Below are positions 2 through 28,544 of a stretch of DNA of 32,000 bases, piece by piece (the first letter of the stretch is position 1; the number at the start of each line of letters is the position of its first letter). A program made the position numbers and the translations under genes. This stretch comes from Marinilabiliaceae bacterium (lineage in GTDB: Bacteria; Bacteroidota; Bacteroidia; Bacteroidales; Marinilabiliaceae), in contig JAEINY010000038.1 in assembly GCA_016342595.1 (NCBI GenBank), positions 3,807 to 35,806 on the forward strand, given 5' to 3'. The notes below the pieces were generated by a model. It saw only the letters and a program-made list of their open reading frames with translations. It was not told the DNA's origin and ran no database searches.

Positions 2-448
2 CGTACTGGTGTAGATCCCTCTGCCATTACAGAAGTAACTTACCCTGTTAGTCTGGATGAAATTTTTACGGATATCTATTCCCGACTTGATTTATTTGTT
101 CAATTTAATCAGGATTCTGACCCCAATGTAAATACTTATGTGTCTACGGTAAAAAATTACCTGAACTATTTACGAAAGGGAAAGCAGATGGAATATGGGA
201 TACTGGTTATTGGTACGAAAGATGATGAGGTTCATCCAGTGCTTAAAGTTGGAGACATTGTTTTGGAACGAAAAGGAGAACCGGTGAGATGCACGGATGA
301 CTACATTAAACTTAAGGAGGCTCCTCAGCCTAATACGTTAAAGGTTTTAAGATATACAGCTGAAGGCAAAAAAGCAATCTTTACAAAACTTATCCCGGAA
401 ACAAAAATATTAGTGGGATTTGCTGATTTAGCTGAAATTGATTTATAA
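2..448 (+). CDS. 3' part of a gene entering from upstream of the window; C-terminal PDZ-like beta domain
   Basis: Frame 2 is open from base 2 with no stop, so the GTG at 140 used by the ORF track is probably internal. The tail GILVIGTKDDEVHPVLKVGDIVLERKGEPV...LKVLRYTAEGKKAIFTKL resembles a PDZ fold pattern (G-hydrophobic run, GD-hydrophobic, G-x-x-V). The stop lies 12 nt before the next ATG. Confidence 0.45.
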   Translation, partial: RTGVDPSAITEVTYPVSLDEIFTDIYSRLDLFVQFNQDSDPNVNTYVSTVKNYLNYLRKGKQMEYGILVIGTKDDEVHPVLKVGDIVLERKGEPVRCTDDYIKLKEAPQPNTLKVLRYTAEGKKAIFTKLIPETKILVGFADLAEIDL

Positions 449-459
449 AGAACACCCTT

Positions 460-2628
460 ATGAGAATGCTTTTTATAAAACTCAGAAGTTATTTTGTTTA
501 CCTGTTTGATCGTTCTGCATCGGGTTCGGTATTAAGGAAATTTGGGTTGTTACTATCACTGTTTTTAGTGATGTATTTTTTTTGGTGGGGTGTGGTGACT
601 ATGGTTGTTCCCCCAGCTCATATTCATCAAATAAACAAAGATATACCCAGTAAGAGTTGGAGCATTGTTTCTCAAATGCTGGATCCCGGTAATCAGCATA
701 TGATAGGTGATGTGACAAAAACGACAACGGATGAGGGGGTGGATAATGGCCAGATAACAGTCAACCATCGGCTGAGGTTGATTGTGTTGTTGATTTCCCT
801 GACAGGTACTTTTATATTTAGCGGACTTCTTATATCGACGTTTACGAATATTTTTGAGCAGCGCGTTAGTATAGTGCGTGAAGGCAAAATGAATTATCAT
901 TACCGGGATCATATTGTTCTGGTAGGTTTTCATTATACCTTACCAGGTATACTTCACCAGATACTAAATAAGACTGAGTACAGGAAATGTAAGATTGTTC
1001 TGCTTACCTCACATAGCTTATTGGAAGTAAAACAAACACTTTTGTCTGAAATGGATGCTTCCGCAGTTAAAAGAATCCATTTGTTATCCGGAAACAGAAC
1101 CAGTCCATCTGATCTGAAAAGGTTGTGGTTACCTTTCGCAAAAGAGATATTTGTGCTGGGGGAAACCAATGAAGCTGATCATGATTCAAGGAATATCAGT
1201 TGCCTGAATGAAATGAATGAAATCATCTGGGGTTTTCGTAAAAAGGGTAGAAAGGCAGGTAAAGCTAACGGTATAATGACCAAGACTTGTCATGTGCTAT
1301 TTGAATCACAGACGACTTATGCCATGCATCAGTTTAATAATTTTCGACCTCTGCAAGCTAATGGGAAAGCCAATTTGACTTGTCTGAATATCCATGCTTT
1401 CAGTTTCTATGAAAAATGGGCTCAAAAGGTATTTGTAGGATGCCGTCATGCTGAAATGGAATACCCACCACTTGATTTTGAGCCAATAACAGAGGATTCA
1501 GATAAATATGTGCATCTGATTGTAGCCGGTATGACCCGTATGGGGCTGGCTATGGGATTGCAGGCTGCCCGATTAGGGCATTATGCCAATCATGAACGGA
1601 AAAAGACCCGAATTACTTTTATAGATATTGATGCAGAGCGGCAAATGAATTATTTCGCCAGCCGTTTCCCAAGCTTCTTTGAAGCCGTTGATGTTACTGA
1701 GATTGATTTACTGAGAGGAACAACTCACCTTAAGCTGGGAGACCATTCGTTTATAAATGTTGAACTTTGTTTTGTTAAGGGGAGTTTTGAACAACCTGAA
1801 ACCCTGAAGAAACTGGATGTATGGACATCAGATTTAAATGCGCTGACCACGATAGCTGTTTGTTATAATGAACAGGATATCAATCTGGCGGCGGGTCTCT
1901 ATCTGCCAAAAGAGATCTATGACAGAAAGGTTCGTATCTTAATCAGGCAGCAAGCTCAACATACGATACTCAATTTACTTCAGGCAGATGAAAAGAAAGT
2001 AGACAACAGATATGCGAATACTTATGCATTTGGTATGACAAATGATTGCTTTGAGATTAATCTACATGATGATTCAAGGGCCAAAGCCATAAATTATTTT
2101 TATTGTAACGATTACATTCTTCCTGATCTTTTGGATGAGAGAATACAAAAGCAAATGAATGACTATTGGTGGGGCTTAAAAGAGCGTTTTAAGTGGTCGA
2201 GCCGATACAATGCAGAATCGATTCCAACTAAAGTAAGGGCGTTTAATGGAGGAAGGGAAACGCAAACAGAAATGGATGTGCTGTTGCATCCTGATCATGT
2301 GGAATTATTAGCCCGGATGGAGCATGCCCGCTGGAATGCAGATACCTTATTGGCTGGCTATGATGTGCCAGCAGCTGATGTTGCGGAAGAGTCAACTTTA
2401 ACTGCCGACCTTGCATGGAAGGCTTATGTTGCCGGGGGATATGATGATCGTGAGCCGGATTACCTAAAACTAAAGCTGGACCATGAAAACTATGTGGCCG
2501 ACTATAAGAGAAAAATGATTCATCCTTGTCTGGTACCTTATGAACAGCTAAGTGTTTACTATAAGGAGATTGACAGGAGGTTGGTTCGTTGTATCCCTCA
2601 GATTGAGAGAATGTCTGGAAATGAATAA
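460..2628 (+). CDS. Membrane protein: 2 TM helices, two Rossmann/RCK-like domains, C-terminal RyR domain
   Basis: 722-aa ORF. Hydrophobic helices LLLSLFLVMYFFWWGVVTMVV and LIVLLISLTGTFIFSGLLISTF. Two Rossmann-like glycine-rich strands, HIVLVGFHYTLPG and HLIVAGMTRMGLAMG. C-terminal aa 613-715 (nt 2296-2604) read LARMEHARWNADTLLAGY...KMIHPCLVPYEQLSVYYKEIDRRLV, matching the RyR-domain pattern (HxxW...G[WY]...hPxlvPYxxLs...k..Dr). No TVGYG-type selectivity filter seen. Confidence 0.65.
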   Translation: MRMLFIKLRSYFVYLFDRSASGSVLRKFGLLLSLFLVMYFFWWGVVTMVVPPAHIHQINKDIPSKSWSIVSQMLDPGNQHMIGDVTKTTTDEGVDNGQITVNHRLRLIVLLISLTGTFIFSGLLISTFTNIFEQRVSIVREGKMNYHYRDHIVLVGFHYTLPGILHQILNKTEYRKCKIVLLTSHSLLEVKQTLLSEMDASAVKRIHLLSGNRTSPSDLKRLWLPFAKEIFVLGETNEADHDSRNISCLNEMNEIIWGFRKKGRKAGKANGIMTKTCHVLFESQTTYAMHQFNNFRPLQANGKANLTCLNIHAFSFYEKWAQKVFVGCRHAEMEYPPLDFEPITEDSDKYVHLIVAGMTRMGLAMGLQAARLGHYANHERKKTRITFIDIDAERQMNYFASRFPSFFEAVDVTEIDLLRGTTHLKLGDHSFINVELCFVKGSFEQPETLKKLDVWTSDLNALTTIAVCYNEQDINLAAGLYLPKEIYDRKVRILIRQQAQHTILNLLQADEKKVDNRYANTYAFGMTNDCFEINLHDDSRAKAINYFYCNDYILPDLLDERIQKQMNDYWWGLKERFKWSSRYNAESIPTKVRAFNGGRETQTEMDVLLHPDHVELLARMEHARWNADTLLAGYDVPAADVAEESTLTADLAWKAYVAGGYDDREPDYLKLKLDHENYVADYKRKMIHPCLVPYEQLSVYYKEIDRRLVRCIPQIERMSGNE

Positions 2629-2808
2629 ATTAATTATTGAGAACTATAATAAAAAGCTGGATTCTGAGCATATGCGAAGCATTATATAGGGAAGTTGAAC
2701 TTTTCGGTGTGATATATAGATAGTTAGAAGCTGAAGAGTATAAATGTTGGTTATTTTTATACTTTAACGCAAAATAGTATTATTAAATATAAATTTTTCT
2801 TTTTGGGT

Positions 2809-3027
2809 ATGACTGATAATGATTATAAATATTTCGCTTTTATTAGCTATAGTCATGAAGATCTAAAAGTCTGCAAACAAATACATAGAAAACTTGAGGG
2901 TTATAAAGTGCCTAAAAAGTTTAGAGGTATCGTAAACGAAAAAGGTGAGCAAGTTCCTTCGAAATTAAGTCCGATTTTCCGTGATAGGGATGAACTTTCA
3001 GCTTCACCCGAGTTATGGTTAGTTTGA
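2809..3027 (+). pseudogene. Truncated TIR-domain gene (N-terminal ~70 residues only)
   Basis: MTDNDYKYFAFISYSHEDLKVCKQIHRKLEGYKVPKKF...LSPIFRDRDELSASPEL matches the start of bacterial TIR domains (FISYSxxD, FRDxxEL). It stops at TGA 3025-3027, before the part of the domain that carries the conserved catalytic Glu. ATG 2809 is preferred over the TTG at 2803. Confidence 0.65.
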
Positions 3028-3375
3028 AGATTATTGAAGGGCTTAAATGGACTTTACCGGAATGGTAAATGGGCCAAAGTAGACAGGCATTGAAATGGAG
3101 GGAAAGTGCATTTGTGCCTGGTAGGGGTAATTATTAGTGGACAATGTTTAAGGATTAATTAGTTGAGGAATGCCCGGCGGCACGATTGTTTTTTTTTGGA
3201 GATGGTCAGGTTGAAGATTATTGAAAGGCTTAAATGACTTTTGTCGGAATTGGGAATGCCTCAAAGGATAAAAACGTGTTACCAATGGAGGGACAAGATC
3301 ATTTGTGCCTGGCTTCATAATTATGAATGGTCAATGTTTAGTGATTAATGTGTGGAATGATCAATGTAAATAGAC
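3024..3375 (+). repeat. Tandem direct repeat, period 187 bp, two diverged copies (3024-3210, 3211-~3375)
   Basis: Both copies start ttgaagattattgaa[g/a]ggcttaaatg. Both share ...atggaggga(c)aag..catttgtgcctgg...aatg[g/t][a/t]caatgttta[a/g][g/t]gattaat. A third partial copy of the atggaggg.aag..tgtgcc.ggc core sits at ~3718-3745. Confidence 0.8.
3171..3197 (+). terminator. Weak intrinsic-terminator-like element at the end of repeat copy 1
   Basis: tgcc-cggc-ggca mini-hairpin (3171-3182), then cgattg and a T9 run (3189-3197). The stem is only 4 bp and is separated from the T run, so the call is weak. Confidence 0.25.
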
Positions 3376-3760
3376 GGAAGGGACTGGCTGCAAGAGAGTG
3401 TAGCGGAGCGAAACGGTTTGCGCACAGGCCCTGGAGAGGCGCGAGCCGACTGCGAGTGGAGCAAGGGTGACAGGCCGGGAACGGTGAGGTACGAACCGTG
3501 TGGGCTGGCATATGTAGTGGTTTGTGGCTGGCGGGATTATTGCTTATTCTGCAAAAGGCATGACAGGCACAGGCCAACTACACGAGGCTACCTTTGAAAA
3601 AAGCCAGAGCGCAGCGGAGGCAAATCAAATAATATCAGCCGAAGCCCGCCGCGACGAGCAGGCGAGCCAAACACAGGTAGCGGCTAAAAACACAAAGGAG
3701 CTGCCATGACGAAGAGGATGGAGGGCAAGAGGTGTGCCAGGCTGGCGATTGGGAGATAAT
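3370..3760 (+). ncRNA. Candidate structured RNA, unclassified (GC-rich, G-skewed, non-coding)
   Basis: Hand count for 3401-3480: 54/80 G+C with G:C = 35:19, versus 22/80 G+C at 3901-3980. It contains a 10-bp helix 3414-3423/3439-3448 (cggtttgcgc/gcgcgagccg, 2 G-U pairs) and a 5-bp helix 3481-3485/3495-3499. ORFs across it have implausible composition. No class signature recognised. Confidence 0.3.
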
Positions 3761-3893
3761 GAGTAACGATATGTGAGTTTACCAGGCTTATGGGCATTGA
3801 TTTGAAAATATGCTGATTGGATAATTTGATTATTCAGTGGATGACGCTTTCACTATTTTGTTAGTCATCCGATGAAATGGAGAGGAGCCACCT

Positions 3894-4292
3894 TTGGCTT
3901 TGCAGCTTTTATTTTACCTTATAAATAGACCCAAATTAAAAGAAGATGTTGATGAAAGTGTTTCTAAATCCATAGAAAACCTTGATTTAAGTAGTAAGGA
4001 GTTTGATAAGAAAATTGAATTAGTGTTTGTTATTCTGAATGACTTTTTAAAAGATGAGTATAAAATTAATGCAACTTTACTCCCTGAAATACTCGATTTA
4101 TGGAACCCTGAGAGAACAAATTATGCAGCACTAAAAATCAGAGCTTTTGACACTGGAGGGCAAGCGTTACCTTATGTGTCAAAACGGATTACTGAGCTAA
4201 TGACAATAAAAGAACCTGATAACAATACTCTTGCCATAATCCAGAACCTCCAGGAAACTAAAGACCATTTGGAGAAAATAACTAACTCCTAA
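3894..4292 (+). pseudogene. Orphaned 3' end of a longer gene (possibly the C-terminus of the disrupted TIR protein)
   Basis: Coding-like AT-rich frame that opens just after an in-frame TGA at 3873-3875. The track start is TTG and the first internal Met is residue 103. It ends with a normal stop, convergent with the minus-strand array. Confidence 0.4.
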
Positions 4293-4318
4293 TTGGTTCA
4301 TTTAATTCTTCGTAGGAC

Positions 4319-5017
4319 CTAAGCCAACAACCGTTCCAATTTCTCTTTCCATTTTTCCCAGTCAGGCATCATGCGATCCTGGAGTTCGAGGAATTTGGTG
4401 GTGTGATCGTGGTGGATGAGGTGGCAGAGTTCGTGGATGATGACATATTCGATGCAGGGGCGAGGGGCCTTGATGAGTTCGGGATTGAGTATGATTTTCC
4501 CCTTTGGGGTGCAGCTGCCCCAGCGGGTGGCCATTTCCTGGATGTAAAGATCTGAGGGTTCTATCTTGAAACGGGCAAATTTTTCGATGAGGGGCTGTGC
4601 GATCTCCTGAAATTTAACTTTGGCCCTTCTTCTGTACCATTGACTCATCAATTGCTTTACCTTGCTTTTGTCATTGGTGTATACTTCGATGAACCGGCCT
4701 TTGTAACGTACTTCTTCTTTTTTTGCTGCCGTTACTTTCAAGCGGTAGTGACGTCCCATGTAAAGATGCGATTCCCCACTGACAAAAAGCTTTTCCGGCA
4801 TCTTGGGATAAAAGGAGAGAAAATAACTTAATTGCTTAATAACCCATGGCGCCCGCTTTAGAACTTTTTCTCTGATCTTTTCTTGTGACGTACCCTCCGG
4901 TGCTTTCACCAATACTTCCATCTCCGGTGTAATTGTGATGCCCAAGGTTTTTCGTTCGGAAAAACTTATTGTGTAATCAATGGTTTTGGAACCAAATAGT
5001 ATTTCATCCTTCATCAC
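4319..5017 (-). CDS. YgjP/DUF45-like (M48-family) zinc metallopeptidase
   Basis: HExxH motif in VIIHELCHLIHHDHTTKFLELQDRMMPDWEKW, typical of the YgjP-like family often found next to hsdR. The start overlaps the hsdR stop by 4 nt (5014-5017). Confidence 0.8.
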   Translation of the reverse strand: MMKDEILFGSKTIDYTISFSERKTLGITITPEMEVLVKAPEGTSQEKIREKVLKRAPWVIKQLSYFLSFYPKMPEKLFVSGESHLYMGRHYRLKVTAAKKEEVRYKGRFIEVYTNDKSKVKQLMSQWYRRRAKVKFQEIAQPLIEKFARFKIEPSDLYIQEMATRWGSCTPKGKIILNPELIKAPRPCIEYVIIHELCHLIHHDHTTKFLELQDRMMPDWEKWKEKLERLLA

Positions 5018-8000
5018 TTGTATCTCGTTTTGGCCACATCCACCATGCGTGCTGCTATGTGGTCGATATCGCTGAAGCTTAAATTTAATTTCAACTTATC
5101 ACGCACCTCATCGATGAGGTAATCGCCTATCAGGAAGATCATCTTTTTTGATATGTCGAGGTTACTTGGGTTGGTCCAGTCGACTACAATCTGGCTTTTA
5201 ATGATGTCATCAATGGCTATGGCCACATCGACACCACTTTTTTTGATATCGGTTTCCTCCGGCCATTTATCTTTGAATTCTTCGAGTGTGATGCCATAAA
5301 AAGCTTTGGCCACTTCTCGGCTATTTAATGCTTCGGGGATTGAACTGTCGGTATGTGAAAGTACCTTCTCAGAGATGTCTTTTACCTTGTTCAGGCATTC
5401 ATTTGCGGAGATTCTGCCCTCTAAATAATCTTGAATGGTTTCGTTCAATAGTCGTGAGAATTTCTTGTAGAATGTGGGATCTTCCTCCATCTTTTCCGTT
5501 ATGTGACGCGCAGTACGTGATGCGATCTTATCAGCTTTGGCGGCCTCCCCCACTGTTTTTTCTACTTCTTTCTGAAAGGCGTCTTTATCGAAGATGTTGA
5601 CCAATTCAGTTATGATTTCTACTTTCTCAGTGGGGATGTGGGTGTCGATCAGTTTCTGGATCTGGCCTTCGTATTTTTTAAAGTCGATGGTATCAGAATA
5701 ACGTTGGACCACCGCTTTTCGCAATTTCATGAAAAAGGCCAGGTCTTCTTTGTATCGTACAATTGTTTTTGCATCGGTATTTTTGTGGTACTCAATGGAC
5801 GAAAGGGCCAGTTTGAGGATTCGTGCAAATCCTGCCAGCTTATCGTAAAACAGAACCCGCACGGCTTCATCCCGAAGGTGCTGTTGGTATGCTTCAGCAT
5901 CCCGTTTATTGGTTACTGTTTTGAATAGGTCCCATAATTCAGAATGTTTTTGCGGCAGTTTTTTGATCTCTTCATTGATATTGGTAATGGTACCGTCCAA
6001 ATCTTCCAGATCGAACTCCTCAAATGAGGAGTATGTTTCGAGTGCATTATCCAATGCACCCAACACACCATAGTAGTCAATCACGTATCCATAGTCTTTA
6101 TCCGGATAGACCCGGTTCACCCGGGCGATGGCCTGCAAAAGGGTATGTCCCTGTAATTTTCGGGTGAGGTAAAGCACGGTATTACGAGGCGCATCGAAAC
6201 CTGTTAGTAGTTTGTCGACGACTATTATAATCTCCGGATCGTCGCTGTAGGTAAAGCGGTTTATGATGTTTTTCTGGTATTTTTTGGACGTCCCATGTTC
6301 GTCCATCATCTTTTTCCAAAACTGTTTTACCAGGTCTGTTGATTCTCCGTAGGCACTGTCTTCTCCTTCCCGTTCATCGGGTGGCGAAATTACCAGCTCG
6401 GACGTCACAATTCCTATCTCGTCCAGGTAATTCTTGTATTTGACAGCTGCAGCTTTCGATTGACACACCAATTGTCCTTTGAGTGCTGTTTGCCCCTGAA
6501 AGTTTTTCTGATAGTGTCTGCTGATGTCCCAACAGATGGCGTATATTTTCTGATCGGCGATGTTGAGCTGATCTGCCCGGCTGAACTTCTTTTTGAGATC
6601 CGCTTTCTCGTAATCGTTGAGTGGTTCCGATATCATGGAGAAGAAATTATCGAGCGGTGCTTCATTTACTTTCTGATAGGCATGCCGTCCCTCGTAGAGC
6701 AATGGTTTTACGGCTTTATCTTTTACTGCTTTGTCAACGGTATAATCGTCGATGATGGTACCGAATTTGGTCAGGGTACTCTTGTCTTTTTTAAATAGTG
6801 GTGTCCCAGTGAAAGCAATGAAACAGGCATTGGGCAGTGTTTTCTGCATCTCGATGTTAAAGGTTCCATGCTGTGTACGGTGGCCTTCATCCACTAACAC
6901 AAAAATGTCGGGACTTTCCAATGGTTGGGTCATCTTCCTGACCGCCGTTTCAAATTTATTGATGATAGTGGTTACCACGGCATCCTGCTTACTTTGCAGG
7001 TGTTCGACCAGCTGACTGCCTGTTTTGGCGTTTTCCACCTCCTTGCCACATTTGCGGAATGTCTTGGTGATCTGTTCATCCAGATCGGTGCGGTCGGTTA
7101 CAAGTATGATTTTAGGGTTACGAATGGTTTTTTCCATTGCAATAGCCTGTGCCAGCATGACCATGGTTAATGATTTACCACTGCCCTGGGTGTGCCAGAT
7201 GACTCCTCCTCTCCGTTTTCCACCCACTAAATGGGTAACCTGCTTTAAGGTTTTACGGACGGCAAAGTATTGTTGGTAACGAGCAATCTTTTTTTGTCCA
7301 TTATCAAACAGGATGTAATTAAATGCAAAATCCAGCATGCGCTGCGGACGGCATAATCCGTACAAGTAGATATCCTGTTGGGTGTGCAGAACTGGTTCCT
7401 TTTCCAAGGCATCAAAGTATTGCCTGACATAAGCGAAACGGTCCGCAAATAGTTTATTCTTTTCCTTGTTATCTAAAGGCTTATTCTTTAGTTGCTCTAG
7501 TGTGGCCAGGTATGTTTTTTGTTCTTTTTCATTCAATTTCTCTTCCCAATGTGCCCAAAACTCAGCAGGCGTGCCGCAGGAGGCATATCGGCCATAATCA
7601 GTGGCCAGGCTTAACAAGGATTGGGCATAGACATATAGTGAGCGAATACCATTTTCGTGCTGATTGCGCAGGTGCTGTGAGACAGCTTGCGTAATGGGTT
7701 CTTTCATATCGGGACGCTTGCACTCAATAACACAGAGGGGGATGCCATTTACAAAAAGAACGATATCTGGGATGTAGCTTTCTTTGCTTCCTGATCGCAT
7801 CACCGTGTATTCTTCAGTGACATGAAAAATGTTATTCTCCGGTCTTTTCCAATCGATGTATTGGAGTGTGAAGCTTTTCTTATCTCCATCAATGCTTTGT
7901 TCCAGTGCCTTTCCCAGGGCTAAGAGGTTGTAAGCGTATTCGGAAGCTGCAATGTATCCATCTACTAAAGGTATCTCTTTGATGGCCTGAATGCCGGTCT

Positions 8001-8226
8001 CAATGTTATTGTCGGAGAACCTGGCGGTTTTAGCCGATGAAACATTAATGGTATTGATGGCTTTTAATTGGTTGCGTAATACGTTTTCCAGTATCACGTT
8101 AGATGTTTTACCACCACGGGCCTCCAATGCTTCATCGGGTGTGAGGTAATTGTAACCGAGTTTGATCAGTAGTTGCAGTGCCGGTAATTGGGATATGTGG
8201 TCTTCTTTGAATGATGGGGTTTGCAT
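5014..8226 (-). CDS. hsdR: Type I restriction enzyme R subunit
   Basis: 1070 aa. N-terminal PD-(D/E)xK motif (PDIVLFVNGIPLCVIECK). Helicase motifs HTQGSGKSLTM (I), FVLVDEGHRTQ (II), FTGTP (III), LLTGFDAP (V) and QAIARVNR (VI). Confidence 0.95.
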   Translation of the reverse strand: MQTPSFKEDHISQLPALQLLIKLGYNYLTPDEALEARGGKTSNVILENVLRNQLKAINTINVSSAKTARFSDNNIETGIQAIKEIPLVDGYIAASEYAYNLLALGKALEQSIDGDKKSFTLQYIDWKRPENNIFHVTEEYTVMRSGSKESYIPDIVLFVNGIPLCVIECKRPDMKEPITQAVSQHLRNQHENGIRSLYVYAQSLLSLATDYGRYASCGTPAEFWAHWEEKLNEKEQKTYLATLEQLKNKPLDNKEKNKLFADRFAYVRQYFDALEKEPVLHTQQDIYLYGLCRPQRMLDFAFNYILFDNGQKKIARYQQYFAVRKTLKQVTHLVGGKRRGGVIWHTQGSGKSLTMVMLAQAIAMEKTIRNPKIILVTDRTDLDEQITKTFRKCGKEVENAKTGSQLVEHLQSKQDAVVTTIINKFETAVRKMTQPLESPDIFVLVDEGHRTQHGTFNIEMQKTLPNACFIAFTGTPLFKKDKSTLTKFGTIIDDYTVDKAVKDKAVKPLLYEGRHAYQKVNEAPLDNFFSMISEPLNDYEKADLKKKFSRADQLNIADQKIYAICWDISRHYQKNFQGQTALKGQLVCQSKAAAVKYKNYLDEIGIVTSELVISPPDEREGEDSAYGESTDLVKQFWKKMMDEHGTSKKYQKNIINRFTYSDDPEIIIVVDKLLTGFDAPRNTVLYLTRKLQGHTLLQAIARVNRVYPDKDYGYVIDYYGVLGALDNALETYSSFEEFDLEDLDGTITNINEEIKKLPQKHSELWDLFKTVTNKRDAEAYQQHLRDEAVRVLFYDKLAGFARILKLALSSIEYHKNTDAKTIVRYKEDLAFFMKLRKAVVQRYSDTIDFKKYEGQIQKLIDTHIPTEKVEIITELVNIFDKDAFQKEVEKTVGEAAKADKIASRTARHITEKMEEDPTFYKKFSRLLNETIQDYLEGRISANECLNKVKDISEKVLSHTDSSIPEALNSREVAKAFYGITLEEFKDKWPEETDIKKSGVDVAIAIDDIIKSQIVVDWTNPSNLDISKKMIFLIGDYLIDEVRDKLKLNLSFSDIDHIAARMVDVAKTRYK

Positions 8227-8475: not shown

Positions 8476-9003
8476 TTAATGCACTTCATCTAATTTTTTC
8501 TTTTGTTTCTTCAGAATTTGTTTTTTTCCACCCTTTTCATTTAAATAATAGGCCGTGAGCAGGTAATAATCCATTCCACTCCTCTGAGGTTCCAAAATTA
8601 TCACGTACTCCTCCACATGATCATAGATATAGGTTCGAATCACATCTTTTCCCTTGATGCGATCTTCATGACTAAAAACGTCGATATTCGCCTTTCTCAA
8701 CTCATCGATATGTGTTTTAATCCAGTGCAACCTGACAGATCGGTGCATATCGAAAGAGCGCGCCCCGGTATTTTTACCTTTCTCGTCTTTATCCTCTTTG
8801 GTCGTCAGATGACCAAAAAGCGTTAACATGGGTGATTCTCCCTCTTTTTTTGTGGGACGAATTGCTTTTGACCTAAATTGAAAACTTACATTTTCCTCAA
8901 TGTCTTGTTTGAAAACACCCATCAATGATTTTTTTCTTTGATGGGGATTAAACTGAGCAATTTCCAACAATTCAGGATATGTTTTAATAAGATTAAACGG
9001 CAT
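8476..9003 (-). CDS. Hypothetical protein, translationally coupled partner of the DUF3800 gene
   Basis: ATG at 9001-9003 lies 7 nt after the DUF3800 stop (9011-9013). The longer track ORF (to 9105) would overlap DUF3800 by 95 nt. 175 aa, basic tail; contains RSVRLHWIKTHIDEL and YYLLTAYYL. No family recognised. Confidence 0.55.
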   Translation of the reverse strand: MPFNLIKTYPELLEIAQFNPHQRKKSLMGVFKQDIEENVSFQFRSKAIRPTKKEGESPMLTLFGHLTTKEDKDEKGKNTGARSFDMHRSVRLHWIKTHIDELRKANIDVFSHEDRIKGKDVIRTYIYDHVEEYVIILEPQRSGMDYYLLTAYYLNEKGGKKQILKKQKKKLDEVH

Positions 9004-9010
9004 ACCTGAA

Positions 9011-9679
9011 CTATTTAAGGTCGATGAAAAAGAGATTAAACTTATCCGCTGTTTTGGGCGTAGATTTTGTGATCGGCACCTTACAATGCTTTTCAATTCT
9101 TTCAATCAGCTTACATTTAGCAACGACCTTATTCTTCCCTCTCAACTTATAATTAATGGCCCCCATAATCAAATCAGCCAATTGCATAAAAACACTTTCG
9201 TGTGATCGAATAAATTGGAAATTACGAATGGATGCATTCCATTTCAACATTTCATTCAGACGATCTAGCTTCTTATAACTACGTGTATCTTTAATGTCGC
9301 AGTAGATGTTGTAGTTGTAACTTTGGTTGATTTTGTGGTGGAGCAACTGATAATACATTCGAAAGTAAAAATCGTCGTAAGTAAACTCCTCTCTGGATTC
9401 ATTAATTTGAGTCTTATCCACAATGATAGACCTGAAATTCATGTCGTTGGAAAAGAAATAATCAATTAAATCAGCATAGAAATAGTATTGGCCATTAGAA
9501 ACGTTTGACCATTTTATTTCTCCTCTTACTTTGTGTTTAGCTCTTATGGCTTTTATACTCTCTTTGTGTTGCTTCAGCTGATTATACGCCACGCTGACAT
9601 ATGCAATCATCATGAAAGGCATCCCATCATTCTGAAGATGGGTACTTTCATCGCAGTACATGTTAAAGGTTTTACTCAT
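9011..9679 (-). CDS. DUF3800-family protein
   Basis: N-terminal MYCDESTH (the family pattern is hydrophobic-DESG/T), GEIKWSNVS, and C-terminal HESVFMQLADLIMGAINY (QLAD motif), as I recall them for DUF3800. Confidence 0.6.
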   Translation of the reverse strand: MSKTFNMYCDESTHLQNDGMPFMMIAYVSVAYNQLKQHKESIKAIRAKHKVRGEIKWSNVSNGQYYFYADLIDYFFSNDMNFRSIIVDKTQINESREEFTYDDFYFRMYYQLLHHKINQSYNYNIYCDIKDTRSYKKLDRLNEMLKWNASIRNFQFIRSHESVFMQLADLIMGAINYKLRGKNKVVAKCKLIERIEKHCKVPITKSTPKTADKFNLFFIDLK

Positions 9680-10172: not shown

Positions 10173-10976
10173 TTATTTCTTTTCTTCCGATGTTACCAAC
10201 TTGTCGGAATTTTCTTTTGCTTCCTCCGTTTCCGGGACAAAAAGATACTTCTCCATGCCAGCTCTTTTAATAATATTGACCCATTTGGTATCGGCTGTCC
10301 AATATTTTCTTTGGGGTGTTACATAAATCATGTTAAAAAGGTCGAACCAATCATTTTCTTTTAACACTATCGCTCCTGTTTCCAGATCGTTGAAAACCAC
10401 TTTTAATACATTTTCGAAGAGTTCAATCTGCGACCAGTCGAAGCTATTGCTCAGCTCTGTATCTTTAGTTCTCAGTTGAACACACATGGAGATGAATGCT
10501 CTATTGGCAGGTATAGAGTCTTCTTTGCGATGCTTTTTTTTGTCCTTTATATTTGGCTTAATGGCTGCTGCAGTTGAGTTAAAACTATCGGCGGCTAATT
10601 TTAAATCATCTCGCCGTTTCTGGCAGTGAGCTTTAAAAGCGTCTGCCTTTTCCTCTGCAATATCATGACCTTTGGCCACCAATTTAGTAAACTGCAAGAT
10701 GGGCAGCAGTTCTTGTGCAGGATTGAAAAAGAATCTTGGATTATCCAATCTTTTTAAATAAACGAGAGGGGGTTCATAGATAGTACCCTTCGAATAAGTC
10801 ATTAATGCTTGAATTGCTTTCCGGGTTACTTCCGGATGCTTCAATAAATTCGGCGTACGTGACAATTCATCGATTGAGTGAAATGTTCCAATCAATTTAT
10901 GCTTAGAAAGAAAATCCTCAGTAGGGGGATTTTGCCCCAGGTGGTACCAGACATTTGTATCGCAAACTATTTCCAT
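10173..10976 (-). CDS. PIN-like nuclease-domain protein with a large insertion
   Basis: Starts MEIVCDTNVWYHL (PIN strand-1 D), then SIDEL, NDWFDLF and YWTADTKW, which could supply the remaining acidic residues. About 150 aa lie between the halves. The start is 8 nt after the hsdS stop. Confidence 0.4.
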   Translation of the reverse strand: MEIVCDTNVWYHLGQNPPTEDFLSKHKLIGTFHSIDELSRTPNLLKHPEVTRKAIQALMTYSKGTIYEPPLVYLKRLDNPRFFFNPAQELLPILQFTKLVAKGHDIAEEKADAFKAHCQKRRDDLKLAADSFNSTAAAIKPNIKDKKKHRKEDSIPANRAFISMCVQLRTKDTELSNSFDWSQIELFENVLKVVFNDLETGAIVLKENDWFDLFNMIYVTPQRKYWTADTKWVNIIKRAGMEKYLFVPETEEAKENSDKLVTSEEKK

Positions 10977-10984: not shown

Positions 10985-12289
10985 TTATTGAATTAATCTT
11001 TTCTTCCCCGTGAGCAACTGCTGCATTAAACCTTTTTTCTGCTCTTTGAGTTTATCCAGTTTGGTTTTTAGCAACTCAATTTCGGTATCGGCAGTTTGCA
11101 GGACTTTGGCGATTAATTTCTGTTCATCGTACTGGGGTAATTTAAAAGCCCACTCTTCCAATGCTTCTTTGTCAAGATTTCGTCTTACAACACTCGCTCC
11201 TTGAACAGACGCCCCTACTAATGCTTTTAGAAATTCTTCACTGCGGACGTAATAACGCATAAACAGGTGATCAATATCGGCTTTCTTAATTTCAAACACT
11301 TTATATGCAGGCGATACAATACCTACATCAAACTTTTCTAAAACATCAATTGATCCCATCCAAAAATTCAATCCACTCATAACCATATCTCCCTTTTCGA
11401 CTATTAAATATGGAGAGGTATCAGCACTAGCAATCTCCTTTTTAAAATATTCCGCTTGTGAAACTATACCATCTTTCGTTACTGAAAGCACTAGAAATTT
11501 TTCATTTCCTGCTTTTTGTTTTTTTGATTGATAAATATCTTTAAATGTTATCAACCTCCACTCTCCACTAAACCCAAGCAACCGTTTTTTACCGGTTAAG
11601 AGTTGCTGCATGAGACCTTTTTTGCGAAGCTCTTTTTGCGCAATGAGTTTAGTGAGGGTTTGGATGGCTTTGTCCCAGGTGGCGAGGCAGGTGATGATGG
11701 TTGTTTGTTCCGTTATGGTGGGGATTGGAACAACGAAGTTTTTAAGTTGTGTAGAGTTTATACTTGCAAGATTTGTACTCTGTTTGGAGCACAATTTGAA
11801 ATAATGCTTACCATATTCACTTGATGAAAAGATGTTTAGGAAATATGGTAGCAGTATGTTACTATCTGTTCTGACAGCGAATACATGATTTTGATGTAGA
11901 CAATTATCAATTTCATCATTCCAAATTGTCCCTCTTCCAAGCTTGTCAAAATCACCTCCTTCCGTCATTAAAACGTCCCCTTTCTTGAGCAAATATCTTT
12001 CTACTTTATCCTCTAATACCTCAATGTATTTTATTTCGGAAAGATTAAGATGTCCATCCTGGACATTAGCGACTCGTAAATAGGGTAGACTTACTTTTTT
12101 CCCTTCTTTTATTGCACCTTTCTGAAGTCCTGTTTGCACTACGGCCGCGTCTTTAATTTTTACTGTGTCCCACTCCTCCGGGATCCACCACCCAAGTTTA
12201 GTGATTTTAAATCCAGGCCTTTTTTTTGTGAGTTGAGGCTGTGATTTTTCAATGCTGTTATTTATAATTTTGTTGTTAACTGTACTCAT
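10985..12289 (-). CDS. hsdS: Type I R-M specificity subunit (two target-recognition domains)
   Basis: Two TRDs, each followed by the conserved helix ...KKGLMQQLLTGKKRL (it occurs twice). ATG at 12287-12289 is preferred because the track TTG start (12319) lies inside a 12-bp hairpin stem. Confidence 0.9.
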   Translation of the reverse strand: MSTVNNKIINNSIEKSQPQLTKKRPGFKITKLGWWIPEEWDTVKIKDAAVVQTGLQKGAIKEGKKVSLPYLRVANVQDGHLNLSEIKYIEVLEDKVERYLLKKGDVLMTEGGDFDKLGRGTIWNDEIDNCLHQNHVFAVRTDSNILLPYFLNIFSSSEYGKHYFKLCSKQSTNLASINSTQLKNFVVPIPTITEQTTIITCLATWDKAIQTLTKLIAQKELRKKGLMQQLLTGKKRLLGFSGEWRLITFKDIYQSKKQKAGNEKFLVLSVTKDGIVSQAEYFKKEIASADTSPYLIVEKGDMVMSGLNFWMGSIDVLEKFDVGIVSPAYKVFEIKKADIDHLFMRYYVRSEEFLKALVGASVQGASVVRRNLDKEALEEWAFKLPQYDEQKLIAKVLQTADTEIELLKTKLDKLKEQKKGLMQQLLTGKKRLIQ

Positions 12290-12352
12290 ATATTCTTTAT
12301 TAAACCTGTTTTTGCACAATAAACCAAGTAGGTTTATTGTGCAGGAGGAGGT

Positions 12353-13825
12353 TTATTGTTGTTTTGATCCGTTTTCTTTTAATTGCTTTCGGTGATACTC
12401 TAAGTGATTGAACAAGGACTCTCCCCAAAGTTTATTTATTTCTTTTAATTCGTCTTTGGTAATTGGTTGATGGAGTAGCTTTTTTGCAAAACTAATTTCC
12501 CTTCGATTTTTAGCCTTAGTATCAAAAACGCCTAGTATTAATTCGTAATGGTATTGTTCGAACTTCACATCCAACCGGTAGTTACAACCAAAGGGATTTA
12601 AACCTCCTTTTTTATAGGCGCTAAAAGAGGTTTGAAATGATATTTCAGCAGACGGCAAGTGATCCTCATATGAGTTTCCTGTCGGTGTTTTTGAATACAC
12701 AATACCATTATCCGTTTTTACTTCGGCACGAGAAAACAAACTTTGTATTTTATCCAATTCAGGATTTTTATCAAACTTTATATAGGGGCCTTTACCATCT
12801 AAATTCAGGCTAATTGTATGTGCCGGCTTATCGTAAAACTCATTGAATTTTGAAGTTGTATTTGCTAATTGTGTTACTAAATCATACCCCCAGCTTTCCA
12901 ACGCGTTTTTTATCGCGCCATAAGTCAAATGATCTTTTATTTCATTTTCATCGTCCTCCTTTTCAATGTCTTGTTTCAGAAGCGCCAATTTTTTGTCCAG
13001 GTCATCCTCTTCATCGATGCTTTCTCCTTTGGCTCCTTTAATCATCAATTCCAACGAGCGATTTACCTGTTCGCAGATATAATTGAAGAAGTAAGCCAGT
13101 TCACCGGCATCCGCTTGTTGTAAAGCGGCCATGTAGTTTTCCTTATCCTCCGTTTTAACGATTGCCGGCGGATATCCCTTTTGCATCAGGATGAAGTTCA
13201 TGAGCAAACGTGCCAGGCGCCCGTTGCCATCATCAAAGGGATGGATACTAATAAAGCGGTAGTGAAATTCAGTGGCGAAAACTACCGGGTGCAGGTCTTC
13301 TTTGTCCTTGTTGTCATTGTACCACTGCAAGAGATCCCTCATCTTAACAGGCGTTTCCTCTGGCGATGCAAAGTGAAAAGTTTCACCTGTTTTGGTCACC
13401 ACATGATTTGGGGCTGTTTTGTATTGCCCCACAGCAATTGTTCGTGTCGTTGATTGACCATCTGCAGTAACGGCTTTAGATTCATATGGTTCTTTAAGAA
13501 TCATGACATGTAATTCACGAATGAACTTTTCTGTCAATGCTATCCCTTGTTTTATATCTTCTACCAACCATTTTATTGCCTCATCGTGCCCGGTCATCTC
13601 CAAATGATCCTTCAATGGTTTGGCTTGAGCAGTCATTCCAAACATGATGAGCGCTTTGGTCTCGCCAAAGGTGAGTTTATTGCCTTCGATGTTAGCCGAA
13701 TGATAGTTCCAGTCTAATCGAAACTTTTGCATGATGCGTTGCTCCACTTCAGCTGACAGGGGCCGAAAGGTATCTAACTCTTCTTTTAATTGTGATGCTC
13801 GTTTGAGGTTTTCTTTATATGGCAT
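12353..13825 (-). CDS. Fic/DOC-family protein (class II layout) with ~270-aa C-terminal extension
   Basis: Canonical Fic motif HPFDDGNGRLAR (aa 195-206, nt 13208-13243). N-terminal inhibitory-helix motif SANIEG fits [ST]xxxE[GN] (aa 43-48). Sits between hsdM and hsdS. Confidence 0.85.
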   Translation of the reverse strand: MPYKENLKRASQLKEELDTFRPLSAEVEQRIMQKFRLDWNYHSANIEGNKLTFGETKALIMFGMTAQAKPLKDHLEMTGHDEAIKWLVEDIKQGIALTEKFIRELHVMILKEPYESKAVTADGQSTTRTIAVGQYKTAPNHVVTKTGETFHFASPEETPVKMRDLLQWYNDNKDKEDLHPVVFATEFHYRFISIHPFDDGNGRLARLLMNFILMQKGYPPAIVKTEDKENYMAALQQADAGELAYFFNYICEQVNRSLELMIKGAKGESIDEEDDLDKKLALLKQDIEKEDDENEIKDHLTYGAIKNALESWGYDLVTQLANTTSKFNEFYDKPAHTISLNLDGKGPYIKFDKNPELDKIQSLFSRAEVKTDNGIVYSKTPTGNSYEDHLPSAEISFQTSFSAYKKGGLNPFGCNYRLDVKFEQYHYELILGVFDTKAKNRREISFAKKLLHQPITKDELKEINKLWGESLFNHLEYHRKQLKENGSKQQ

Positions 13826-13904
13826 GGTATTGTTCTTTTAATAGGGCTAATAGTTGGTTCGGGTAATGCTCCACCGAAAGATACGGTTGGTGTTTCTATA
13901 TATT

Positions 13905-15431
13905 TTAAAAATCCAATTTTTTCAAATACTCTTCCATTTCCACCTGTACCTCCTTGAGTTCACCCTCCAGCTTTTCAATTTCGTCTTGAACGGCTGGGAT
14001 GTTCACCTCTTCTTCTTCTTCAAAGGTATCTACATAACGTGGTATGTTGAGGTTAAACTCATTCTCTTTGATCTCATCAAAAGAGGCTACGTAGCTGTAT
14101 TTGTCTTCGGCAATGCCTTGTAGTAAGTCCCCATTATGAAATTTATTGTAGGTTTTCACTACTTTTTCAATGTCGGCGTCGCGCAGTTTATTCTGATTTT
14201 TGCCCGGTTCACAATCTTTACTGGCATCGATGAATAATACATCGGTCTGCTCTGCTTTTCCTTTGTTGAAGATGAGAATGGCCGCCGGTATACCTGTTCC
14301 AAAAAAGAGGTTGGATGGCAAACCAATCACTGCTTCCAGCATGTTATCCTCAATGGTTCGTTGGCGAATCTTACCTTCGCTGCTTCCTCTAAACAACACC
14401 CCATGTGGTACCACAACCCCCACTTTTCCTTTGCCTTCATAGGCTGATTCGATCATATGGGAGATAAAGGCCCAATCTCCTTTGCTTTTGGGTGGTACGC
14501 CTCGCCAGAAGCGGTTATACTGGTCATTGGCTGCTTCATCGGCTCCCCACTTGTCCAATGAGAAAGGCGGGTTAGCCACCACTGTATCAAATTTCATCAG
14601 CGCATCCCCTTCTTTATGCTTGGGATTACGAATGGTGTCCCCCCATCGAACGGTGGCATTATCGTAACTGTGCAAAAACATGTTCATGACTGCCAAAGCC
14701 CAGGTACTGCCATTGGCTTCCTGACCATATAAAGAGAAGTTATTACTTTCCACTTCTCTGGCTGCTTTGATGAGTAAAGAACCGGATCCACAGGTGGGAT
14801 CATAAATACGTGCACCAGGCTCACTCTTCGTCAGTTTGGCAATGAGGGTGGATACTTCAGCCGGCGTAAAAAACTCACCGGCTTTCTTACCGGCATCACT
14901 GGCAAAGTTAGCTATGAGAAATTCGTAGGCGTCTCCGATGATGTCCTTCCTGGAAAGATGGGAAGGTGTTAAGTCCAGTTCGGAGAAATCGATCAACAGG
15001 TTTTTCAGTCGTGTGTTTTTCCCTTTGGCATCCCCCAGGTTGCTGCTGTTGAATGAGATGTTGCGAAAGATACCTGAACCGTCTTCACTGGTGAGTTTTT
15101 CGCGGTTAGCTTCTTCAAGGTCGGCTAGGGCAATGTCTATTCGTTCCCCGACATTGGCTTCATTTCGGTGCTCATAGAGGTAATCGAAGTAGCTGTTGGC
15201 AGGTACCACAAAGCGCTCCATTTTCATGGCCCGATCGGTCCGTGCTTCATCTCCTTTATACTGCTTCAGGTACTCTTTGCGCTTCTCCTTATTGACATCA
15301 CTCACGTACTTCAAAAACAGCATGGTGAGTATGTAATCTTTATATTGACTTGGATCGATAACCCCTCGAAAAGTATCACATGCTTTCCACACAATTCTAT
15401 TTATATCCTGATCGTTAATTACCTTACTCAT
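13905..15431 (-). CDS. hsdM: Type I R-M N6-adenine DNA methyltransferase subunit
   Basis: HsdM N-terminal pattern (DTFRGVIDPSQYKDYILTMLFLKYVSD), AdoMet motif YDPTCGSGSLL and catalytic VVANPPFS. Confidence 0.95.
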   Translation of the reverse strand: MSKVINDQDINRIVWKACDTFRGVIDPSQYKDYILTMLFLKYVSDVNKEKRKEYLKQYKGDEARTDRAMKMERFVVPANSYFDYLYEHRNEANVGERIDIALADLEEANREKLTSEDGSGIFRNISFNSSNLGDAKGKNTRLKNLLIDFSELDLTPSHLSRKDIIGDAYEFLIANFASDAGKKAGEFFTPAEVSTLIAKLTKSEPGARIYDPTCGSGSLLIKAAREVESNNFSLYGQEANGSTWALAVMNMFLHSYDNATVRWGDTIRNPKHKEGDALMKFDTVVANPPFSLDKWGADEAANDQYNRFWRGVPPKSKGDWAFISHMIESAYEGKGKVGVVVPHGVLFRGSSEGKIRQRTIEDNMLEAVIGLPSNLFFGTGIPAAILIFNKGKAEQTDVLFIDASKDCEPGKNQNKLRDADIEKVVKTYNKFHNGDLLQGIAEDKYSYVASFDEIKENEFNLNIPRYVDTFEEEEEVNIPAVQDEIEKLEGELKEVQVEMEEYLKKLDF

Positions 15432-27217: not shown

Positions 27218-27865
27218 TTAATTTCTCTTATCCACTGTATCATCCGGCCAATCAATCAAATTGACCATCTCCCTCAATCGACTGCGTACTCGTTGCCCAT
27301 ATAGTTCTTCAATTTGATCCACATCCAGGTTAGTGGTGATGAGGGTGATGAGGTTATCGGAGATGAAGAGGTCGTAGCGGCTGAGTAGGATTTCGGCTAT
27401 TACGTTGCATTCACTGCCGAAATGTTTGAGGCTTTGTTCGGCTCCCAAGTCATCTAGACAGATGGGTTTTGGTATTTTTCTACCTGGAGAAATAGAAAAG
27501 CTGCGTTTGCTGTAGCGGTGAATGACTTCGAAACCGTCCTTTTGAAATTCGAAGCTGATATCGCGGCAGGGTTTGACCTGGTAGCGGTGTTCAATGGGGA
27601 GTAGGAGTTGCATCAGTTTCATCAGTGAGGTTTTGCCACAGCCGATGGGACCGCAAAGCATGAGGCCTTTTCTGGGATCCAATTCTTGTGATATGGTGGT
27701 GGGATGGTCGCCAATGGTGTAGGCGAAGAGTTTCCGGATGATGGGCATGTCTTCATCGTATAGTTTGAAGGTGGGGCCGTAGATGGTTTGGCCTTTTTTT
27801 GTGATGAAGGATAAGGACTTTTGGAAGTCGTAGATGATGGTGTTGTTTTTTATTTGGTAGTGCAT
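27218..27865 (-). CDS. DnaC/IstB-like AAA+ ATPase
   Basis: Walker A LMLCGPIGCGKTSL. Walker B and following region read ICLDDLGAEQSLKHFGSECNVIAEILLSRYD, the helicase-loader-like pattern. Confidence 0.65.
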   Translation of the reverse strand: MHYQIKNNTIIYDFQKSLSFITKKGQTIYGPTFKLYDEDMPIIRKLFAYTIGDHPTTISQELDPRKGLMLCGPIGCGKTSLMKLMQLLLPIEHRYQVKPCRDISFEFQKDGFEVIHRYSKRSFSISPGRKIPKPICLDDLGAEQSLKHFGSECNVIAEILLSRYDLFISDNLITLITTNLDVDQIEELYGQRVRSRLREMVNLIDWPDDTVDKRN

Positions 27866-27913
27866 GTTTTTTCAGTTTTAAGTTAAAACCTAAAGTGCTC
27901 AAGGAATACTATT

Positions 27914-28177
27914 TTATCTAAGTGCTATAGCCGCACGGGCTTTTACTTTCTCCCTACAGTCGCAGAAAGTAAACAAAGAAGACCGCCGATACTGCCCAAT
28001 TACGCTAAATGATTCCATTACGGCGGAAAGAAAAGAACTCGCTCTGCTCAAACAGCTTTTCTTTCTGATCGCCTTTATTTCATCATTCTTAACGCTATTG
28101 GTCAGAGGCGGATGTTCATATTGAAAAGTTGTATTATCATTTGGTGATTGTGTTGAAACTGCTTTCTTGTATGGCAT
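27914..28177 (-). CDS. Small hypothetical protein (87 aa, internal-Met version of the 164-aa track ORF)
   Basis: ATG at 28175-28177 lies 10 nt after the stop of the upstream gene (28188). The longer form overlaps that gene and is low-complexity T/P/S-rich. Confidence 0.25.
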   Translation of the reverse strand: MPYKKAVSTQSPNDNTTFQYEHPPLTNSVKNDEIKAIRKKSCLSRASSFLSAVMESFSVIGQYRRSSLFTFCDCREKVKARAAIALR

Positions 28178-28187
28178 GACGTTATTT

Positions 28188-28544
28188 TTAGTTGAGTGAA
28201 TATTTGCTGGGGATGGCAATTGGAAAGTTGATGGGTTGAAAGAAGAATGCCATGTGTTTGATGAAGGTGATGATGTTGGCATAGTAGTGCAGGAGGCATT
28301 CGGCATCGGTGTAGGTATTGTAGGGCGGGTCGAATGTGTAGCTGTATTCCTGACCTGATAAATGACAATAAACGGATTGTATCCTGTCGTGAAGATCAAT
28401 GATTTCACATAGGTAGGATTGTTTGTCGATGAATAGTTTTTGCTCGAAGAATTGCTCGGAAAGGTTAACTATCTTATCCAGGATTTGATCGAAGTTTTCG
28501 ATGTTGAACTTGCATTTTAGGTTTTGGTAGAGTAGGTTTTTCAT
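28188..28544 (-). CDS. Hypothetical protein (118 aa)
   Basis: Ordinary amino-acid composition from MKNLLYQNLK (ATG 28542-28544). No motif recognised. Confidence 0.4.
   Translation of the reverse strand: MKNLLYQNLKCKFNIENFDQILDKIVNLSEQFFEQKLFIDKQSYLCEIIDLHDRIQSVYCHLSGQEYSYTFDPPYNTYTDAECLLHYYANIITFIKHMAFFFQPINFPIAIPSKYSLN

Follow-up and report, generated by a model that had tools for sequence, protein, structure and literature searches.

Does a bacterial TIR protein signal to an ion channel through a ryanodine-receptor (RyR) repeat? The question is raised by the left end of a 32,000-nucleotide stretch of a Marinilabiliaceae bacterium (assembly GCA_016342595.1, contig JAEINY010000038.1, positions 3,807 to 35,806; hereafter the window), where the gene for a 722-aa membrane protein stands between two TIR coding sequences. 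Considering its architecture, homologies, residue conservation, gene linkage and island context, we put at roughly 60% the probability that this protein is the effector of a Thoeris-like TIR nucleotide-signalling module, that is, an RyR-sensing, RCK-gated cation channel acting in defence or signalling. The features concerned are listed below, with other loci that were fetched for comparison cited by their L numbers throughout.

2..448, + strand: 3' end (last 148 codons) of the upstream gene, encoding a TIR protein with a transmembrane (TM) segment; the gene begins before the window, and the frame is open from nt 2
460..2628, + strand: channel gene, 722 aa; a two-TM pore-loop (P-loop) pore is followed by two RCK domains in tandem and, at the C-terminus, by an RyR-repeat domain
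529..879, + strand: pore module; in the AlphaFold2 (AF2) model TM1 at aa 24-49, pore helix at 65-74, a conserved loop at 75-81 and TM2 at 103-140
904..1449, + strand: RCK1, approximately aa 149-330, with Pfam PF22614 (Slo-like_RCK) at aa 149-246
1501..2040, + strand: RCK2, approximately aa 348-527, with a beta-alpha-beta pattern in the AF2 model and the glycine-rich loop AGMTRMG
2077..2622, + strand: C-terminal helical domain, aa 540-721; a divergent RyR repeat with its core at aa 611-721 (nt 2290-2622)
2803..3027, + strand: remnant of a second TIR gene, a 74-aa open reading frame (ORF) 174 nt past the channel stop; a pseudogene fragment

The 722-aa protein is identical to the hypothetical protein JEZ14_07485 of a Marinilabiliaceae bacterium metagenome-assembled genome (MAG) at NCBI, and its AF2 model, built on 42 homologues, has a pLDDT of 88 and a pTM of 0.80 as a single chain. 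The two TM helices that were originally predicted appear in the model as a TM1/pore-helix/TM2 unit. Against the PDB, the channel-family profile matched the pore and RCK1 of BK (residues 222-449, S5-S6 included; E 2.4e-6) and the pore of GsuK (residues 9-158; E 1e-4), and it also found, from sequence alone, the RCK1 domains of DMI1 and CASTOR in addition to that of BK. The pore loop of the window protein reads LDPGNQH (aa 74-80), within a family motif [ILF][DN]PG[NSG] whose P76 and G77 columns are kept in 39/42 and 41/42 sequences, respectively; the K+ filter TVGYG does not occur in the pore loop of this 42-sequence alignment. The predicted filter of CASTOR, a Ca2+-selective and Ca2+-gated channel, is AD(S/A)GNHA (PMC6697748), and the likeness of the D-x-G-N..H pattern to it may be taken as a lead for cation or Ca2+ permeability, no more.

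The two Rossmann domains, which had been read as RCK/KTN-like, proved to be so. RCK1 is matched by Slo-like_RCK (E 2.7e-7; 30.7 bits against a cut-off of 24), and when the model was compared with the PDB by Foldseek, GsuK came out on top (E 8.8e-9, 517 aligned columns), followed by human and Aplysia Slo1, the gating rings of CASTOR/DMI1, MthK and TrkA. In RCK2, residues G357, M358, M361, G362, I388 and D389 are invariant or nearly so; because the glycine-rich loop and the near-invariant Asp389 at the end of beta2 are kept, a second nucleotide site is possible in this Rossmann fold, as in GsuK, which is activated by ADP and NAD+ (PMC3510474). GsuK, BK/Slo1 and CASTOR/POLLUX/DMI1 likewise join a TM-P-TM pore to two RCK domains in one chain, with NAD+, ADP and Ca2+ as the ligands in the case of GsuK and with Ca2+ gating a Ca2+ channel in that of CASTOR/POLLUX/DMI1; the channel differs from these dual-RCK channels in being only ~10-14% identical to them, in lacking TVGYG, in its extra C-terminal RyR domain and in its conflict-system context. 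Among defence models, PADLOC gave no family for the channel at E<=1 and nothing for the flanking ORFs or the TIR stub, and NCBIfam gave no match for the channel protein.

An RyR-like C-terminal segment (nt 2296-2604) had also been proposed, and the comparison of profiles agrees with it. By hhalign, the channel C-terminus aligns with 38 stand-alone RyR proteins, taken from a set of 62 RyR proteins, at 95.6% probability (E 1e-8), with EH622ARW625 of the channel paired with HEVW, IH688PCLVPY with HPCLVPY, and D705R with DR. The family profile (A1) further finds the RyR1 chimera 6uhi in the PDB (E 3.5e-5). The repeat, whose signature is EH622ARW625, H688PCLVPY and D705R, carries an insert of ~40 aa, and its residues E621, H622, R624, W625, H688 and D705 are invariant across 60 species; modelled alone by AF2, the C-terminal domain reaches a pLDDT of 90.9. 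Its model retrieved nothing meaningful from the viral structures in BFVD. According to two preprints of 2026, the phage RyR-domain proteins RyDEP and RyR-Tad (PF02026) bind 2'cADPR, 3'cADPR and cyclic ADP-ribose (cADPR) with nM to sub-µM affinity, or cleave them, and contact the ligand through H75/W78/H100/D117 and H129/W132/H154/D171, respectively (PMC13232231; 10.64898/2026.06.04.730250). The channel repeat keeps the H-x-x-W, H and D residues with the same spacings of 3 and 17, the W-to-H distance being longer through the insert, and the stand-alone RyR neighbours show the exact 3/25/17 spacing of the phage proteins (L001 sequence and A3 consensus). These comparisons support the assignment of the channel C-terminus as an RyR repeat with its ligand-contact residues kept, which may bind a messenger of this type.

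As for the source of such a messenger, the original prediction looked to the downstream TIR ORF, noted its truncation and concluded that this copy was probably inactive as a pair. The truncation is real: the remnant matches only residues ~2-65 of TIR neighbours from other species and has no catalytic WxxxE region, Pfam TIR_2 covers only 22 aa of it, and tblastn with the TIR neighbours of L003, L005, L069, L072 and L076 produced a match at nt 2815-3015 only, with no TIR sequence further downstream. A TIR partner does exist, but it is the upstream gene cut by the window edge and not the downstream stub. This gene was recovered via the orthologous locus L004 (Marinilabiliaceae) and then, via its non-TIR part, as P0367, an NCBI TIR domain-containing protein of Marinilabiliaceae bacterium, the last 148 aa of which are identical to the translation of nt 2-448. 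The full product of 644 aa starts with a TIR_2 domain bearing the catalytic motif WVRRE (WxxxE) at aa 77-81, which is followed by one TM helix and then by a C-terminal region with no assigned function. The nt 2-448 product is also 82% identical to the C-terminus of the 663-aa TIR_2 protein of L004 (Pfam TIR_2 E 2.3e-13), in which one TM helix is predicted directly after TIR. From the upstream TIR stop to the channel ATG the gap is 11 nt, and it is 11-14 nt in the window and L004; the same TIR-then-channel arrangement occurs in L004 and L095. Because an intact TIR gene with catalytic residues ends 11 nt before the channel ATG, the channel and upstream TIR pair in the window is probably active, and the earlier conclusion does not hold. 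Only 8 relatives were found for the upstream protein outside its TIR domain, and in 4/4 readable contexts this TIR family directly precedes a membrane protein with an RyR-type C-terminus, which belongs to the channel family in 3 and to a second large-TM family with an RyR-like C-terminus in L094.

We then asked how general this linkage is. A scan of one genome per species identified 296 species with a channel relative, and 79 species-level loci were analysed with our own ORF calls and iterated hidden Markov models, followed by a Pfam check that confirmed 42/45 TIR (TIR_2) and 60/62 RyR neighbours. At these loci the distribution around the channel, counted in genes, was as follows.

Stand-alone RyR gene (~100 aa): ±1 in 37/79 loci, ±4 in 49/79; on the channel strand in 54/56 (±4)
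TIR gene: ±1 in 18/79 loci, ±4 in 30/79; on the channel strand in 31/35 (±4)
At least one of TIR or RyR: ±1 in 50/79 loci, ±4 in 64/79

TIR frequency peaks at the -1/+1 positions with 20/155 and is 8/278 from six genes outward (odds ratio 5.0, p 1.2e-4), and stand-alone RyR genes occupy 38/155 of these positions against 4/278 at six or more genes away. The stand-alone RyR gene is the family's most conserved partner, and TIR linkage is frequent, not universal; 7/9 distinct contexts in the subclade of the window include a TIR gene. The channel family comprises 1,033 clusters (50% identity) at E<=1e-30, most of them full-length. Its members come chiefly from Bacteroidales, besides a few from spirochaetes and clostridia, and it is host-borne, being essentially absent from viral contigs (one IMG/VR match). 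Gene orders at selected loci illustrate the variety of contexts.

Window: TIR-channel-TIR stub
L004: TPR-TIR-channel-TIR-TIR
L002: SIR2-TIR / nSTAND1-TPR / channel / RyR
L003 and L005: channel-RyR-TIR-TPR
L090: TIR-TPR-channel-RyR
L091: TIR-TIR-channel-RyR
L095: TIR-channel-RyR
L092: M48 / Zn-ribbon / nSTAND1 / channel / RyR, no TIR
L006: channel-RyR only

The neighbouring TIR proteins are themselves diverse. Pfam assigns C-terminal FGE-sulfatase domains to 10 of them, Lcl_C to 4 and WG repeats (WG_beta_rep) to 3, an N-terminal SIR2 domain to 4, and Fib_succ_major, WD40, Macro and SNase to 1 each; one TM helix is predicted right after the TIR domain in 26/47. In 45 of these proteins, conservation of the catalytic Glu reaches at least 90%, and several match the ThsB models of PADLOC (best E 8e-71). 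Such diversity of TIR partners argues for a repeated, independent association of TIR with the channel and not for one inherited arrangement. The RyR domain in these loci is also fused to 2TM proteins, to a C39-like peptidase and to the second large TM family, and its fusion to various outputs is the pattern of a sensor domain. TIR linkage being found among the homologues, RyR profiles matching the C-terminus and the surroundings being an island of type I restriction-modification (R-M), McrBC, KAP and YobI genes with neighbours that vary between species, and not a housekeeping context, the original proposal of a TIR-signal-gated membrane effector is supported, in which the Rossmann or RyR modules would bind the nucleotide.

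A separate observation concerns topology: the layout of TIR, TM helix and extracytoplasmic-type domain seen in about half of the neighbouring TIR proteins (L004:5995-7986, L004:10360-11688, L039, L040, L053, L061, L066 and others) is of the Toll-like-receptor type.

We envisage that such a module would work as follows, the messenger, its recognition, the gating, the ion selectivity and any anti-phage role being inferred. The N-terminus would form a P-loop cation pore, presumably tetrameric, with an [IL]DPGNQH loop that looks less like K+ channels than like the Ca2+-selective filter of CASTOR. A gating ring of the BK/GsuK/CASTOR type would be built from two RCK domains of each subunit, and the RyR repeat with its (c)ADPR-contacting residues would hang on it. 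Once triggered, the product of the TIR gene 11 nt upstream would convert NAD+ into an ADPR-derived messenger, a role that in other species might be taken by TIR-TM-extracytoplasmic-domain proteins, by SIR2-TIR proteins, or by TIRs working with TPR or nSTAND sensors. The messenger would bind the RyR repeat of the channel and possibly the RCK2 Rossmann site too, the gating ring would open the pore, and the resulting ion flux or depolarisation would halt growth or phage replication. The stand-alone RyR protein could pair with the single repeat of the channel into a two-fold module like that of the animal Repeat12 (R12); alternatively, it could buffer or cleave the messenger and so set a threshold. 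Carried to its full extent, the scheme would run from a bacterial TIR through an ADPR-derived messenger to an RyR-gated, Ca2+-permeable channel, with the RyR repeat as the direct receptor and the stand-alone RyR protein, which belongs to the family of PDB entry 3NRT, as a built-in co-receptor or signal-terminating enzyme; it would then correspond, among prokaryotes, to the animal cADPR-RyR link and might even be the origin from which that link evolved. We offer this extended version only tentatively and regard it as rather doubtful.

Several observations weigh against the channel being a TIR effector at all. The Pfam RyR match (PF02026) in the channel lies below the gathering score (17.4 against 27.4 bits) and aligns 28 aa (aa 683-710). 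Structural comparison by Foldseek was not significant for the RyR part: RyR repeats dominate the list for the C-terminal model, yet with E values of at least 0.9 and TM-scores of 0.44-0.46. In animal R12, the same residues bind ATP/ADP and dantrolene (PMC13232231; 10.64898/2026.06.04.730250), so the ligand of the channel could be an ordinary adenine nucleotide. NAD+/ADP gate GsuK by way of its RCK domains, and a like mechanism here would leave the RyR repeat dispensable. Only 38% of the 79 loci have a TIR gene within four genes, neither a TIR nor an RyR neighbour is present in 15/79, and part of the TIR signal may be island clustering, given that TIR genes still make up 2.9% at six or more genes away. 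The window itself, when searched for stand-alone RyR gene remnants or further TIR genes, contained none.

In a rival account, the channel and the stand-alone RyR protein form a self-contained metabolic sensor, gated by adenine nucleotides or NAD+ as GsuK is and serving ordinary physiology, and TIR genes are nearby only because genes of both kinds build up in variable islands; in a variant, the TIRs would be NADases, and the channel might at most read the loss of NAD+ indirectly. An RyR neighbour in 62% of loci against a TIR neighbour in only 38% would suit such a sensor, as would the redox and arsenic-type neighbours, without any TIR, of P0007/L006, the ADP/NAD+ activation reported for GsuK, the best structural match (PMC3510474), the ATP/ADP-binding site of animal R12 and the Rossmann-type Asp kept in RCK2. 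It is hard to reconcile, however, with a TIR frequency that is sharply highest at the immediate neighbours on the same strand, with the 11-14 nt gap to the upstream TIR in the window and L004, with an upstream TIR family found only beside RyR-type membrane proteins (four contexts), with the independent recruitment of several unrelated TIR architectures and with the recurrence of nSTAND and TPR sensor genes in the clusters; we consider it unlikely. Quite unlikely, in our estimate, is a non-immune form of transmembrane signalling in which the TIR-TM proteins perceive an external cue in the manner of Toll-like receptors and their messenger gates the channel, for example in envelope stress, in the sensing of contact or kin, or in surface behaviour. 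The TM helix after TIR in more than half of the neighbouring TIR proteins and their FGE-sulfatase, Lcl_C, WG_beta_rep and Fib_succ_major C-termini (10, 4, 3 and 1, respectively) speak for it, together with the WG_beta_rep genes that follow the cluster in L001, L092, L094 and L095 and the recurrent ECF-sigma-like 190-aa gene. The window and L003 are nevertheless set amid restriction, Abi and NTPase defence genes, conflict systems are where partners of the nSTAND1, SIR2-TIR and ThsB-like kinds typically occur, and the species distribution is patchy and non-syntenic. Finally, RCK domains are typical of K+ channels and transporters, and TrkA and MthK are among the fold matches, as would be expected if the protein were an ordinary K+ channel or K+-transport regulator with an incidental RyR likeness and a coincidental TIR neighbour. 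This we hold to be very improbable, as the TVGYG filter is absent, the context is not one of conserved housekeeping genes, the RyR homology comes with invariant ligand residues at E 1e-8, and stand-alone RyR genes are enriched beside the channel in the proportions given above.

If the protein is taken as a TIR effector, Thoeris is the nearest known system. Thoeris membrane effectors include the type II Macro-TM protein, ThsF of type V, the SLATT protein of type VII and the type X 'ion channel' ThsK (10.64898/2025.12.03.692087); the tables of that study, as far as they are accessible, do not contain the labels RyR, RCK or TrkA. As in Thoeris, a TIR gene with its catalytic Glu stands beside a gene that joins a nucleotide-binding-type sensor to a membrane output, in a defence island, and some TIR partners of the channel match ThsB models. 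Unlike in Thoeris, the effector here, ~700 aa long, is a P-loop channel that combines an RCK gating ring and an RyR-repeat sensor, most of the TIR partners are large and multidomain (TIR-TM-X, SIR2-TIR) and are often accompanied by TPR or nSTAND genes, a third component, the stand-alone RyR protein, is frequent, and TIR linkage is not universal. Type X, the one Thoeris type described with an 'ion channel' effector, was considered and rejected: ThsK, which we located beside ThsB in Bacillus cereus-group contigs (L088:3319-3987), is a 222-aa multi-TM protein that hhalign aligns with the channel profile A1 at a probability of 0.05%, and tblastn of the type X ThsB against plasmids found type II (Macro) operons only. 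In the papers searched, we found no prior description of a Thoeris effector with RCK domains or of TIR-RyR host systems; host-encoded RyR-domain effectors are not described in PMC13232231 or 10.64898/2026.06.04.730250, and the conflict-systems paper of Kaur et al. (2020) makes no mention of channels, RCK or ryanodine. Because the effector has no PADLOC or NCBIfam match and no similarity to ThsK, and because none of the papers searched describes such an RyR/RCK effector, we assign the system to no named Thoeris type; it is best read as Thoeris-like with a new effector.

The channel repeat belongs to the same fold family (PF02026) as RyDEP and RyR-Tad and has the ligand residues H-x-x-W, H and D in common with them. 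These two phage proteins are soluble and act against defence as sponges or glycosidases, whereas the domain of the channel is host-encoded, fused to a pore and enlarged by the insert, and the stand-alone RyR copies also sit in a host locus. A second comparison is with the animal receptors, whose regulation by cADPR is debated and in which R12 is the nucleotide and dantrolene site. Like them, the window protein is a predicted cation channel with an RyR repeat carrying the same ligand residues, and a TIR or cyclase product is the candidate ligand. Animal RyRs are six-TM giants, in contrast to the unrelated 2TM/RCK pore with a single divergent repeat per subunit described here, and the bacterial link is so far one of gene neighbourhood. 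The stand-alone bacterial RyR partners (those of L005-L082) match Repeat12 of animal RyR2 at E ~1e-67, an unusually close match that suggests horizontal transfer between animals and Bacteroidota.

The stand-alone RyR family is that of the Bacteroides thetaiotaomicron 'putative ryanodine receptor' (PDB 3NRT, 4N05 and 6UAG). In a B. thetaiotaomicron MAG, the RyR gene immediately before a channel gene (L010:7473-7772, ~100 aa) encodes this crystallised protein, its product matching 3NRT over the full length (E 8e-61); the window, unlike these loci, has no stand-alone RyR gene. A literature search found no function described for the 3NRT protein, a structural-genomics orphan.

Should the proposed mechanism be true, TIR/Thoeris-type immunity would gain a gated P-loop channel with an RCK ring as an effector, and the RyR repeat, known in such a role until now only from counter-defence proteins of phages, would become a new host-side sensor domain. 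The linkage also provides a genomic context and a testable function for more than 1,000 uncharacterised protein clusters and for the orphan 3NRT protein. Whether and where cADPR-type molecules bind to RyR repeats has been argued for decades in animals, and a small bacterial system that holds an enzyme, a channel and a soluble RyR protein together could settle this question. The TIR-TM-extracytoplasmic-domain partners, in turn, hint at Toll-like receptor topologies in bacteria.

Other RyR proteins were observed in the fetched loci. RyR-2TM proteins of 205-263 aa stand in for the plain RyR gene in L028, L032, L037, L008 and L015 (several Bacteroides loci). Proteins of 330-383 aa combine a weak C39-like peptidase N-terminus with a C-terminal RyR domain (L045, L046, L051, L053, L055, L059, L063, L066 and L075; for example, L066:10657-11799), and their genes are usually preceded by those for a 190-aa protein with a sub-threshold likeness to extracytoplasmic-function (ECF) sigma factors and for a 134-aa membrane protein. 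The second multi-TM family, of ~700-790 aa with an RyR-like C-terminus (EHLRW ... HSCL), is distant from the channel family (E 1e-11 to 2e-7) and includes L094:7960-10056, L080:12648-14816, L050:2327-4651 and L057:13065-15425; in L094, its gene lies between an upstream-type TIR gene and a stand-alone RyR gene. A cassette recurs by the channel or TIR genes (L092:1281-5905, L094:3322-5008, L057, L065, L072, L063 and L035), sometimes followed by an nSTAND1 NTPase gene; it encodes a zinc-ribbon M48 peptidase of 292 aa, a protein of 85-86 aa and a zinc-ribbon protein of 168-172 aa.

Most of the remaining window is a dense defence island on the minus strand (4319-27063), with the following members.

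4319-5017, minus strand: YgjP-like metallopeptidase
5014-8226, minus strand: HsdR (type I R-M)
9011-9679, minus strand: DUF3800
10985-15431, minus strand: HsdS, Fic/DOC (embedded) and HsdM
16154-18829, minus strand: fusion of a ResIII helicase and a KAP P-loop NTPase, 891 aa
18955-22639, minus strand: McrC and McrB
22687-27063, minus strand: YobI-like NTPase, 1,458 aa

Several ORFs of the island, at 8476-9105, 10173-10976 and 27218-31601, gave no family match. Between the channel locus and the island lies a non-coding segment, just past which a 132-aa ORF (3894-4292, + strand) has no relative in any fetched locus. Its only family hit is to Pfam, weak and below threshold, and the ORF may be an orphan or not a real gene.

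3015..3745, + strand: non-coding insert or rearrangement point, with two direct repeats (3015-3166 and 3202-3356) spaced 187-190 nt

Rfam yielded nothing over the whole window at gathering thresholds or over 2600-4400 at E<=1, a tRNA scan of the window found none, and a scan for promoters and terminators was uninformative, its yield being below shuffle expectation. A fold z-score of -0.2 gives no evidence for a structured RNA in 3340-3770. The insert starts where the frame of the TIR remnant ends; its repeats are ~78% alike and are followed by a GC- and purine-rich segment with a strong positive GC skew. An 81%-identical copy of 664 nt is present at L004:1765-2418, in a different position, upstream of the TIR/channel cluster, and the insert may be a small mobile or recombinogenic element.

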